From an uncultured Candidatus Saccharibacteria bacterium (GTDB taxonomy: Bacteria; Patescibacteriota; Minisyncoccia; Phycocordibacterales; CAYSCM01), in NCBI GenBank assembly GCA_964429815.1, contig CAYSCM010000001.1:32001-96000 (forward strand): DNA of 64,000 bases, written 5' to 3'. The notes below the pieces were generated by a model. That model saw nothing but the letters and a program-made list of their open reading frames with translations, did no database searches and was not told the DNA's origin. The translations under genes were made by a program, and so were the position numbers. Positions 50,360-52,015 of the stretch are shown piece by piece. Every line of letters starts with the position of its first letter. Within the stretch, counting starts at the first letter, position 1.

Positions 50360-50388
50360 GGTACCAGAGTCTCTTTTGTTCCGTTCAA
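50360..50388 (-). promoter_or_regulatory. 3' arm of the pre-16S processing stem (RNase III-type)
   Basis: Complementary to 51987-52015: 8 bp, a 2x2 internal loop, then 19 bp. Confidence 0.7.
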
Positions 50389-50516
50389 TATACCAGTACG
50401 CATTTCTGGAAAGCGAGCAGACTTTAAAGACATACTGCTATGGTCTACTTCCGTACTCGATCGAGATACAGAATATCGACCGGATAAGTCTTACCTTCCG
50501 AAGAAGGAGACAGTTC

Positions 50517-51981
50517 CGATTGGAATTAATCCACGAGCAGCTTCCGCTACCCGTGCCTTGTTACGACTTACTCCCTGTCACCGAACTTACCGTAGACCTC
50601 GACGAGCGAGGGCTTCGGGCACTTCCGGCTCCCTTGAGTTGACGGGCGGTGAGTACAAGGCTCGAGAACGTATTCACCGCAGTGTGCTGACCTGCGATTA
50701 CTAGCGATTCCGGCTTCATGAGGTCGAGTTGCAGACCTCAATCCGAATTGAGCTATCGTTTCTAAGGGTTTGCTCCGTCTTGCGACATTGCGTCCTGTTG
50801 TCGATAGCATTGTATCACGTGTGCAGCCCAGGGTATCAGAGGGACATGCTGATCTGGCGTCATCCTCACCTTCCTCTCCCGTAAGGGAGCAGTCTCGCCT
50901 GACACTTGTAACAGGCAACGAGGGTTGCGTTCGTTTCCCCACTGAAGGGAACAACTCAAGCCACGAACTGACGACGACCGTGCATCACCTGTCCAACCGT
51001 CCGTGAGGACTGCTAAAGTTTCCTCTAGCATTCGATTGGATTTCTAACCCTGGTAAGGTTTTTCGCTTACCGACGAATTAAGCCACATGATCCACCGCTT
51101 GTGCGAGCCCCCGTCTATTCCTTTGAGTTTTAGCCTTGCGGCCGTACTACCCAGGCGGTTCCCTTAACGCGTTAGCTTCGCCTCTTAGAGGGTCGATACT
51201 CCAAAAAGCCAGGGAACATCGTTTAGGGCGTGGACTACCGGGGTATCTAATCCCGTTCGATCCCCACGCTTTCGTTTTTCAGCGTCAGAAATGCGCCAGT
51301 GAATTGCCTTCGCATTTGGTGTTCCCCATGATATCAACGGATTTCACCCCTACACCATGAGTTCCATTCACCTCTCACACTCTCTAGTTGTACCGTTTCC
51401 CCCGCCCGTATGGCGTTAAGCGCCACGATTTAACGAGGGACTAATACAACCGCCTACAAACCCTTTACGCCCAGTGATTCCGGGTAACGCTTGTAGCACT
51501 CGTATTACCGCTTCTGCTGGCACGAGTTTAGAAGCTACTTATTCATGAGGTAACGTCAATAAACTTCCTCCCTCATAAAAGATGTTTACGTCCCGAAGGA
51601 CTTCATCCATCACGCGGCGTCGCTCGGTCAGACTTTCGTCCATTGCGGAAGATTCTCGACTGCAGCCATCCGTAGATGTATAGCCCGTGTCTCAGTGCTA
51701 TCGGTGGGGGTCAGCCTCTCAGCTCCCCTAAGCGTCATAGCCTTGGTAGGCCATTACCCTACCAACTAGCTGATACTCCGCAGGCCGCTCCCAAAGCGAT
51801 AAATCTTTACTCTCGCGAGACCATCGGGAATTATCCAATCTTTCGACTGGTTATGCCCGACTTCGGGGTACGTACCTACGTATTACTACCTCGTCTGCCA
51901 TGGGTCTAAACCCATTCGACTTGCATGCCTTATCCACGCCGCCAGCGTTCACCCTGAGCTAGGATCAAACTCTAGCTAAGA
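50517..51981 (-). rRNA. rrs: 16S rRNA (3' end non-canonical; exact 3' boundary uncertain)
   Basis: 5' AGAGTTTGATCCTAGCTCAG at 51973 downward. 515 region GTGCCAGCAGAAGCGGTAATAC. Also GCCCGTC, AAGTCGTAACAAGG, and helix 45 with a GGAA loop ending in GGAT at 50529. Confidence 0.9.
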
Positions 51982-51986
51982 ATTCG

Positions 51987-52015
51987 TTGAACGGAACAAA
52001 AGAGAGGCTGGTACC
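51987..52015 (-). promoter_or_regulatory. 5' arm of the pre-16S processing stem
   Basis: GGTACCAGCCTCTCTTTTGTTCCGTTCAA on the minus strand, pairing with 50360-50388. Preceded in the leader by the SD-like AGAAGGAGGT. Confidence 0.7.

Follow-up and report, generated by a model that had tools for sequence, protein, structure and literature searches.

Ribosomal RNA (rRNA) genes that are unlinked, with the 16S gene apart from the 23S and 5S genes, are common in Patescibacteria and other groups. As is generally known for E. coli, B. subtilis, and other bacteria, and as summarized in part in PMC10582724, the leader and trailer of the 16S precursor (pre-16S) pair with each other to form stems that are substrates of RNase III. 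About half of Parcubacteria have been reported to lack the anti-Shine-Dalgarno (anti-SD) motif (Tsurumaki et al., 2022, RNA 28:1041, PMC9297842). We describe here a 64-kb stretch of DNA (contig CAYSCM010000001.1; hereafter the window) with a 16S gene enclosed by a leader–trailer helix, a non-canonical 16S tail, and a free-standing copy of the canonical 16S terminus (hereafter the orphan) further downstream. Coordinates are those of the window, in which the rRNA region lies on the minus strand, and L-numbers denote the loci from relatives that were compared. We consider it very probable that the locus comprises a monocistronic 16S unit with a processing helix, an anti-SD that was lost in place, and a separate orphan element under selection.

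Relatives were gathered by a genome scan for 16S signatures, which yielded 120 loci. The best 16S matches were Parcubacteria metagenome-assembled genomes (Paceibacterota, Adlerbacteria, and Taylorbacteria; 82–86% identity), and a metagenome scan recovered locus L134, which is 95.3% identical across 16S, leader, and trailer. Twelve contig look-ups provided one syntenic 16S locus (L126) and one more 16S end that lacks the anti-SD (L143). Judged by these matches, the window organism is a Parcubacterium (Patescibacteria/Candidate Phyla Radiation, CPR). DNA of this organism or of that of L134 occurs in sequencing runs SRR12313482 and SRR12313479 and in JGI Ga0207952.

The 16S gene (51980–50519, minus strand; matched by Rfam over the full model, 1–1533) is bracketed by two complementary arms identified by inverted-repeat search: a 5′ arm, GGUACCAGCCUCUCUUUUGUUCCGUUCAA (52015–51987, minus strand), with the core UUGUUCCG, and a 3′ arm, UUGAACGGAACAAAAGAGACUCUGGUACC (50388–50360, minus strand), with the core CGGAACAA. 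The arms are 29 nt each, 93% complementary (27 of 29 bp), and 1598 nt apart; by eye, the helix comprises 8 bp, a 2x2 mismatch (CC/AG), and 19 bp. The 16S gene starts 6 nt after the 5′ arm ends, and the 3′ arm begins 141 nt past GGAT (50532–50529). A preliminary description of this DNA had proposed a stem of exactly this layout and position, with the 5′ arm about 6 nt before 16S, which agrees with the Rfam start at 51980, and the 3′ arm about 140 nt beyond GGAT and just before a hairpin, which is located at 50324–50357. By our own estimate, a pairing of 27 or more out of 29 positions would arise by chance somewhere in the 4.2-kb region with a probability of about 1e-7.

An equivalent helix was found in 15 Parcubacteria with enough flanking sequence, including Portnoybacteria locus L119, which has a canonical 16S tail. 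Covariation of the arms across relatives, which the preliminary description had named as the test of the stem, was borne out: RNAalifold on the concatenated arms predicted 26 pairs, 23 of them with compensatory changes. Standard pairs are formed in 92% of cells (45–50% with the partners slid), and the covariation score of 0.733 (about 0.2 when slid) was reached by none of 500 shuffles; the arms in this alignment (A1) were anchored on the conserved core after duplex prediction, which favors pairing somewhat. A core of conserved sequence, UUGUUCCG/CGGAACAA (51994–52001 and 50374–50381), recurs in the 15 Parcubacteria loci, with the rest of the helix covarying freely; such conservation of sequence within a helix hints at sequence-specific recognition.

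The helix therefore brackets the whole of 16S, provides about two turns or more of double-stranded RNA, and is conserved through compensatory change. Signals that would place both arms on one transcript are predicted: a sigma-70-type promoter, TTGACA-16-TATACT (52258–52231, minus strand; 11 of 12 consensus positions by scan), which leaves a leader of about 250 nt before 16S, and an intrinsic terminator consisting of a perfect 17-bp palindrome (50357–50324, minus strand), which begins 2 nt past the 3′ arm. The terminator has A and T runs, so that it is bidirectional in form, and a terminator occupies the same place after the 3′ arm in L134, L110, L078, L038, L096, and L041. We regard the helix as the basal or processing stem of a monocistronic pre-16S; its existence, conservation, and covariation are established by sequence comparison, and cleavage of an RNase III type, the enzyme responsible, and the mature 3′ end are inferred. 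The primary transcript would run from the promoter at 52258–52231 to the terminator at 50357–50324, and its leader and trailer would form the 27-bp helix around mature 16S and a trailer of about 140 nt. The helix would join both ends and would most likely be cut by an RNase III-type endonuclease specific for double strands, after which the trailer would be trimmed, or possibly kept in part.

The stem itself is a genuine feature of an ordinary kind. As in other bacterial pre-16S stems, a long-range leader–trailer helix of at least two turns, maintained by compensatory change, brackets mature 16S, and both arms would lie inside one predicted transcript. Unlike those stems, this one belongs to a monocistronic unit that has a terminator of its own and no link to 23S; the 3′ arm lies 80–200 nt past the 16S end, so that a multi-hairpin, pseudoknot-bearing trailer is enclosed; and the core UUGUUCCG/CGGAACAA is conserved in sequence across Parcubacteria. 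A literature search for the pre-16S stem or 16S maturation in this bacterial group found no publication.

The trailer of about 140 nt is built of the tail mini-hairpin described below and of further modules that recur across the clade. The first of these is a GC-rich tetraloop hairpin, which in the window is the UUCG-capped hairpin GUCUCCUUC-UUCG-GAAGG-UA-AGAC (50511–50488, minus strand; DNA: GTCTCCTTC-TTCG-GAAGG-TA-AGAC), present in the proximal tail as the preliminary description had it, and in L134 is GUUUUCCUCC-UUCG-GGGGCGAAAAC, with a compensatory change. The CUCCUU motif that this hairpin was said to sequester is not general: CCUC-like runs occur there in the closest relatives only. We considered whether CUCCUU/CCUCC in this hairpin might be an anti-SD that had moved, and rejected the idea, since the motif is present in the window, L134, and some near relatives and absent in many others. 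The second module is a GUCGAU motif (50480–50475) followed by a hairpin (50480–50449, minus strand), found in nearly all Parcubacteria trailers examined. It is followed by an H-type pseudoknot (50446–50416, minus strand; L134 5315–5350), and the last module is the hairpin CCAG-AAAUGCGUA-CUGG (50409–50393, minus strand), the equivalent of which carries a GAAAGA loop in many relatives.

The pseudoknot is formed by stem 1, AGAC (50446–43)/GUCU (50431–28), and stem 2, AGCAG (50439–35)/CUGCU (50420–16), with an A-rich loop 3. Between the window and L134 both stems differ by compensatory changes (AGAC/GUCU vs GGAC/GUCC; AGCAG/CUGCU vs AGUAU/AUACU), and the same architecture holds across the clade: the 5′ strand of stem 1, a loop ending in AU, the 5′ strand of stem 2, a short loop, the 3′ strand of stem 1, an A-rich loop, and the 3′ strand of stem 2. 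A simple pseudoknot finder recovers this architecture in most Parcubacteria loci. At 26 of 66 loci, the observed score is attained by at most 1 of 40 dinucleotide shuffles; in the window alone it is reached by 5 of 40 and is not significant. In a MAFFT alignment (A4) made without fitting to structure, all 10 pseudoknot pairs covary, with a score of 0.464 (0.10–0.31 when slid). Rfam has no family over the trailer stretch, and the conserved pseudoknot-bearing trailer looks new. In every one of the 15 Parcubacteria with the helix, L119 included, the 3′ arm lies 81–198 nt past the 16S end. Since L119 combines a canonical tail with a long trailer, the enclosed trailer is a Parcubacteria trait older than the loss of the anti-SD.

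In the window, h45 of 16S is intact (GGCACGGGUAGC-GGAA-GCUGCUCGUGG), and the non-canonical sequence begins after GGAU (50532–50529), where UAAUUCCAAU stands in place of CACCUCCUUA. The 16S end thus reads GGAUUAAUUCCAAU, without CCUCC(U), and the non-canonical tail, which begins GGAUUAAUUCC, forms a mini-hairpin, UUCC (50525–22)-AAUC-GGAA (50517–14) (50528–50513, minus strand), that replaces the anti-SD sequence. Among related loci, 53 distinct tails lack CCUCC and follow the pattern GGA(A/U)NAUUC(A/C)A... with a short hairpin next. The stem of this mini-hairpin changes in step between lineages (UUCC/GGAA, UCCA/UGGA, CUCA/UGAG, and GUC/GAC), a covariation read by eye. The canonical tail is retained in more distant Parcubacteria (Portnoybacteria L119, GGAUCACCUCCUU; Moranbacteria L026, GAAUCACCUCCUU), and the tail of Azambacteria L057 is a variant, GGAACAUCUCCUU.

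An AGGAGG-like motif precedes the start codon of only about 5–8 of the approximately 60 window genes, and 32% of SD-like hexamers lead to a start codon and open reading frame (ORF), compared with 18–28% in permuted controls; the genome is essentially independent of Shine-Dalgarno (SD) sequences. The window organism resembles the group of Tsurumaki et al. (2022) in its 16S end without CCUCCU, its placement in Parcubacteria, and its mostly SD-less genes, and the missing anti-SD is already-published biology for the clade, an old change made in place. The relevant passages of that paper make no mention of a replacement mini-hairpin, trailer structure, processing helix, or orphan tail.

The preliminary description had also placed a canonical tail copy outside the stem, and an exact GGATCACCTCCTT is located there, at 48936–48924 (minus strand). 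It belongs to an element (48971–48924, minus strand) composed of a hairpin, AGUCG (48971–67)/CGACU (48941–37), and CUGGAUCACCUCC (48938–48926) followed by UU. The identical 13-mer CTGGATCACCTCC is found in two other anti-SD-less Parcubacteria, L134 (7439–7451, plus strand) and L121 (4227–4215, minus strand), and in all three it lies between the 16S unit and tRNA-Ile, on the same strand as both. The layout of L134 matches that of the window, its orphan being preceded by convergent terminators and followed by tRNA-Ile. L121 represents a different sub-lineage, its trailer being nearest to those of L100 and L038; there, CAGTCGCACAAGGTAGCCGTAG is followed after about 60 nt by CGACTGGATCACCTCC, 325 nt upstream of tRNA-Ile, and CAGTCGCACAAGGTAGCCGTAG matches about 20 of 22 nt of canonical 16S positions 1494–1515, unlike that organism's own ...AAGGCACGGGUAGCGG. 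Independent short-read contigs of the same organism cover 48583–50355 with the same ORFs and the same orphan, and therefore we do not regard the orphan as an assembly artifact.

Across 64 anti-SD-less 16S genes, 170 kb of downstream sequence contain the exact 12-mer TGGATCACCTCC three times on the sense strand, against 0.01 expected, and never on the antisense strand; copies with one or two mismatches are at background, seven on each strand. GAC or GTC precedes TGG in all three orphans, whereas the 51 canonical 16S ends that were matched in the loci all lack this feature. The CGACU before the motif pairs with an upstream AGUCG in the window and L121. The conserved block consists of CUG + GAUCACCUCC, and conservation ends right after CCUCC, with UU, GA, or CU next. 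The motif, with a hairpin upstream of it, is present at all three loci, where the predicted folds vary and lack significance. Scanning metagenomes for the orphan together with its window flanks found nothing, and a viral scan returned one chance match, inside a terminase gene. The orphan was absent from both L126 and L143.

From these comparisons we conclude that the three orphans are homologous and derived from a canonical 16S 3′ end. In the pair formed by the window and L134, the comparison shows purifying selection on the 13-mer, because the 13-mer is invariant, its flanks are unalignable, the neighboring ORF (135 aa in the window) is only 28.8% identical to its orthologous 134-aa membrane protein of L134 (E 2e-6), and the conservation is not accounted for by any reading frame. 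Selection is probable also in L121, where the motif is intact and the GAC before TGG is shared. Treated as neutral fragments, the orphans show the 16S origin (13 of 13 tail nucleotides; in L121 also positions 1494–1515), and no neutral decay was seen. The orphan was lost from, or never present in, most of the clade. A selected orphan copy of the canonical 16S terminus looks new; the case rests on three loci. The preliminary description had held that the distal tail became harder to explain, and it is indeed a conserved element in three lineages.

That description had further treated the proximal arrangement as co-evolved rather than freshly disrupted, and this held up: helix, long trailer, and tail type are clade-wide, and the arms show abundant compensatory change. 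A fresh disruption would consist of a 1.6-kb insertion after GGAU, with the proximal tail as part of the insert and the distal GGATCACCTCCTT as the true 3′ exon. It would explain why the distal tail is on the same strand and between 16S and tRNA-Ile, where an ancestral 16S end would sit, and CPR rRNA genes are known to carry insertions. We nevertheless hold it to be extremely improbable, as the proximal tail type, trailer, and 3′ arm are kept in dozens of relatives without a downstream canonical tail, the 3′ arm pairs and covaries with the leader, a predicted terminator closes the unit, and h45 is complete upstream of the proximal tail. The interval also contains no Rfam intron family, and its ORFs encode small membrane proteins and no homing endonuclease; the canonical tail of L119 leads into the same trailer, and relatives that lack the interval altogether have the same tail and trailer. 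To call the canonical tail "displaced," as the preliminary description did, is thus misleading, since the anti-SD was lost in place and the trailer was present already in canonical-tailed L119. Also very unlikely, if less so, is that the distal motif represents the last codons of a small opposite-strand protein gene (...GCA AGG AGG TGA), with the terminator of that gene next. The window has a plus-strand ORF of 68–85 codons, with AAAGGAGAG upstream of a TTG at 48727, that stops at the TGA in the motif, with terminator-like hairpins on the plus strand beyond it; L121 has a 20-codon ORF with an SD motif and the same TGA, and L038, L096, L078, and L110 have small basic SD-led ORFs at the same position relative to tRNA-Ile. 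However, the frame in L134 extends over just 21 codons without a start, not one of the six frames is both open and provided with a start ahead of the motif at each of the three loci, and the putative peptides differ in length and sequence. The window ORF itself scores as non-coding (−0.07 per codon, compared with 0.16 for genes), was not called in an independent assembly, and has no family matches.

More weight attaches to the view that the distal tail is a neutral leftover, either a chance match or a decaying fragment of a canonical rRNA operon, ancestral or foreign, that arrived at a tRNA-Ile recombination hotspot, with no function, which we nonetheless judge unlikely. The spacer varies widely in length (60 nt to 2.8 kb), the partial tRNA-Ile duplicates in L134 are typical of repeated integration, the distance from the orphan to tRNA-Ile (308–627 nt) is of the order of a 16S–tRNA-Ile spacer, the orphan occurs in only 3 of about 66 lineages, and the motif is universal in donors, so that independent recent imports would look identical. 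Set against this, the three exact occurrences, where 0.01 were expected, are all on the sense strand and in the same interval; the window and L134 spacers are orthologous, as the flanking ORF indicates, and unalignable around the invariant 13-mer. Moreover, the h45 part is decayed or rebuilt and the tail intact, the shared derived GAC/GTC before TGG argues against separate imports, and no intermediates with one or two mismatches rise above background. Like rRNA gene fragments or pseudogene relics, the orphan derives from a canonical 16S 3′ end; unlike them, its 13-mer stayed invariant while its surroundings changed. Another possibility, which we entertain tentatively, is that an orphan RNA stands in for the missing 16S 3′ end, as an anti-SD acting in trans on the few SD-led mRNAs, for instance those of the small ORFs nearby, or as a ligand or decoy of a factor that reads h45 and GAUCACCUCC (Era, RbfA, YbeY, or similar). 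Era recognizes h45 and GAUCACCUCC (Tu et al., 2009/2011, as summarized in PMC10582724), and the conserved block corresponds to this published recognition sequence and stops after CCUCC; the motif follows a hairpin, much as the 16S tail follows h45; and the spacer ORFs have unusually strong SD motifs in an SD-poor genome, with AAGGAAAGGAGGT common to the window and L134. Yet most anti-SD-less relatives lack the element, which is therefore not essential to that type of ribosome, the terminators part the orphan from the ORFs, and the orphans have no common predicted fold.

For the selected, separate orphan that we favor, the distal GGATCACCTCCTT, 1.6 kb downstream, would lie outside the 16S unit, would never have been the end of this gene in its present form, and would constitute a separate short element between the 16S terminator and the tRNA-Ile promoter. 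Several points weigh against this account or its parts, in addition to the anchoring of the arm alignment mentioned above. Both the promoter and the terminator, as well as cleavage by RNase III and the mature 16S 3′ end, are predictions; scanning detected no promoter for the orphan on either strand; the three orphan regions have no significant shared predicted structure (z −1.1 to −1.9); and the orphan has a patchy distribution, at only three of about 66 loci. In addition, era is reported to be lost from most CPR in the part of the literature summarized in PMC10582724, and era was not found in the window or the loci by tblastn, a weak test with an approximate E. coli query and a window of only 64 kb. 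We therefore downgraded an Era mimic as the main explanation, most CPR being without era.

On the opposite strand, the motif reads GGAGGUGAUCCAG and runs into a hairpin of intrinsic-terminator type at all three loci (by scan in the window and L121, by eye in L134), so that either strand could be the functional one. Our working guess is that the orphan, as RNA, imitates the canonical 16S 3′ terminus and is read by a factor or a complementary RNA. By analogy with rRNA-mimic operators and the Era ligand, it would present a short non-coding hairpin and then single-stranded GAUCACCUCC; unlike the former, the orphan is outside the leader of any obvious ribosomal gene, and the likeness is one of resemblance only. 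We offer as speculation, and hardly as the likeliest outcome, a joint reading in which a selected trans-acting mini-gene copying the 16S 3′ terminus (hairpin and CUGGAUCACCUCC) accompanies an undescribed pseudoknot trailer in 16S maturation across Parcubacteria; within it, the mini-gene might be a detachable anti-SD for a few SD-led mRNAs, or a ligand or decoy of a 3′-end factor.

The preliminary description had also pointed to a leader motif, AGAAGGAGGT, which is present, although at 52022–52013 and not at 52016–52025, overlapping the first 3 nt of the 5′ arm. Covariation of the leader AGAAGGAGG with either tail, which that description had suggested testing, was not seen: L134 has AAGGAGUGG, and other relatives have just purine-rich runs. 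Pairing of the leader AGAAGGAGG with the orphan (8 + 4 bp in the window, 4 + 4 bp in L134) was rejected as unconserved.

On the minus strand, the order of features is 23S, 5S, about 9 kb of protein genes, the 16S unit, small ORFs, the orphan, tRNA-Ile, and tRNA-Leu. The rRNA genes are thus unlinked: the 23S (64000–61464, minus strand) and 5S (61021–60916, minus strand) genes lie upstream on the same strand, and about 9 kb of protein genes separate them from 16S; this stretch ends with SecD, SecF, and a 200-aa hypothetical protein before the 16S promoter. Unlike unlinked rRNA genes in general, 16S here still has tRNA-Ile downstream of it, as a gene with a promoter of its own. About 300 nt of non-coding DNA separate the orphan from tRNA-Ile(GAU) (48616–48544, minus strand), which is preceded by a predicted extended −10 promoter, TGCTAGTAT (48655–48627, minus strand); this motif or a close variant is kept in L038, L096, L110, and L134. 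With its own promoter, tRNA-Ile is therefore transcribed separately from 16S; tRNA-Leu(CAG) (minus strand) is located after it. The independent short-read contigs (L001, L125, and L123) are interrupted at three places, namely the 16S 5′ region, the 34-nt palindromic terminator (about 50355), and the interior of tRNA-Ile (about 48583–48599), and the junction of the 3′ arm and terminator lies outside their span. The universal 515F primer site (51524–51545, minus strand) reads GTGCCAGCAGAAGCGGTAATAC, with AA replacing CC, so that standard amplicon primers may miss the lineage.

The spacer between the 16S unit and tRNA-Ile ranges from about 60 nt to 2.8 kb among relatives; in syntenic L126, the 3′ arm is about 60 nt from tRNA-Ile, with no ORFs and no canonical tail, and in other relatives the spacer measures 270 nt to 2.8 kb. 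In the window it carries four small lineage-specific ORFs (50251–49070, minus strand) of 84 aa (50251–49997, strong SD motif), 41 aa (49893–49768), 69 aa (49771–49562), and 135 aa (49477–49070, strong SD motif), all of which were called in the independent assembly and are preceded by purine-rich SD-like motifs in a genome that is otherwise SD-poor. These ORFs encode small membrane proteins that match nothing in Pfam. By codon log-odds, the 84-, 69-, and 135-aa ORFs resemble genes; a foreign origin was considered, with a GC content that is higher (58–65%) and codon log-odds like those of native genes. The 134-aa ORF of L134 is the sole relative of the 135-aa ORF among 5.8 billion proteins. A 13-nt SD-like sequence, AAGGAAAGGAGGT, is identical at window 50256–50268 and L134 6545–6557, before small membrane-protein ORFs that were found only in these two loci. 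Back-to-back terminators (49057–48999) follow the ORFs, the minus-strand hairpin (49057–49037) closing the 135-aa ORF and the plus-strand hairpin lying at about 49005–49019.

In L134, the intact tRNA-Ile (8078–8150) is surrounded by incomplete copies of its promoter, 5′ end, and 3′ half (7896–7923, 7976–7995, 8195–8222, and 8312–8325), which suggests repeated integration or recombination at tRNA-Ile. These copies mark the spacer as a recombination hotspot and make a relic origin of the orphan plausible, but not its neutral persistence. Small, very basic ORFs (46–74 aa), divergent from the tRNA-Ile promoter and 80–100 nt from tRNA-Ile, are present in L038, L096, L078, and L110; the set, which includes window 48727–48933 (plus strand), has several members with a strong SD, no mutual similarity, and no family match.

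The stem shows the packaging, and probable maturation, of an unlinked 16S in a large uncultured group without studied rRNA processing, and the pseudoknot-bearing trailer is a candidate for a new structured RNA element connected with ribosome biogenesis. Bacteria without the SD docking sequence on their ribosomes still keep a free-standing copy of exactly that sequence. If the orphan is not expressed, it would be a marker of a recombination hotspot beside tRNA-Ile; if it is expressed, it would provide a direct handle on the rewiring of translation initiation or 30S assembly after the loss of the anti-SD.

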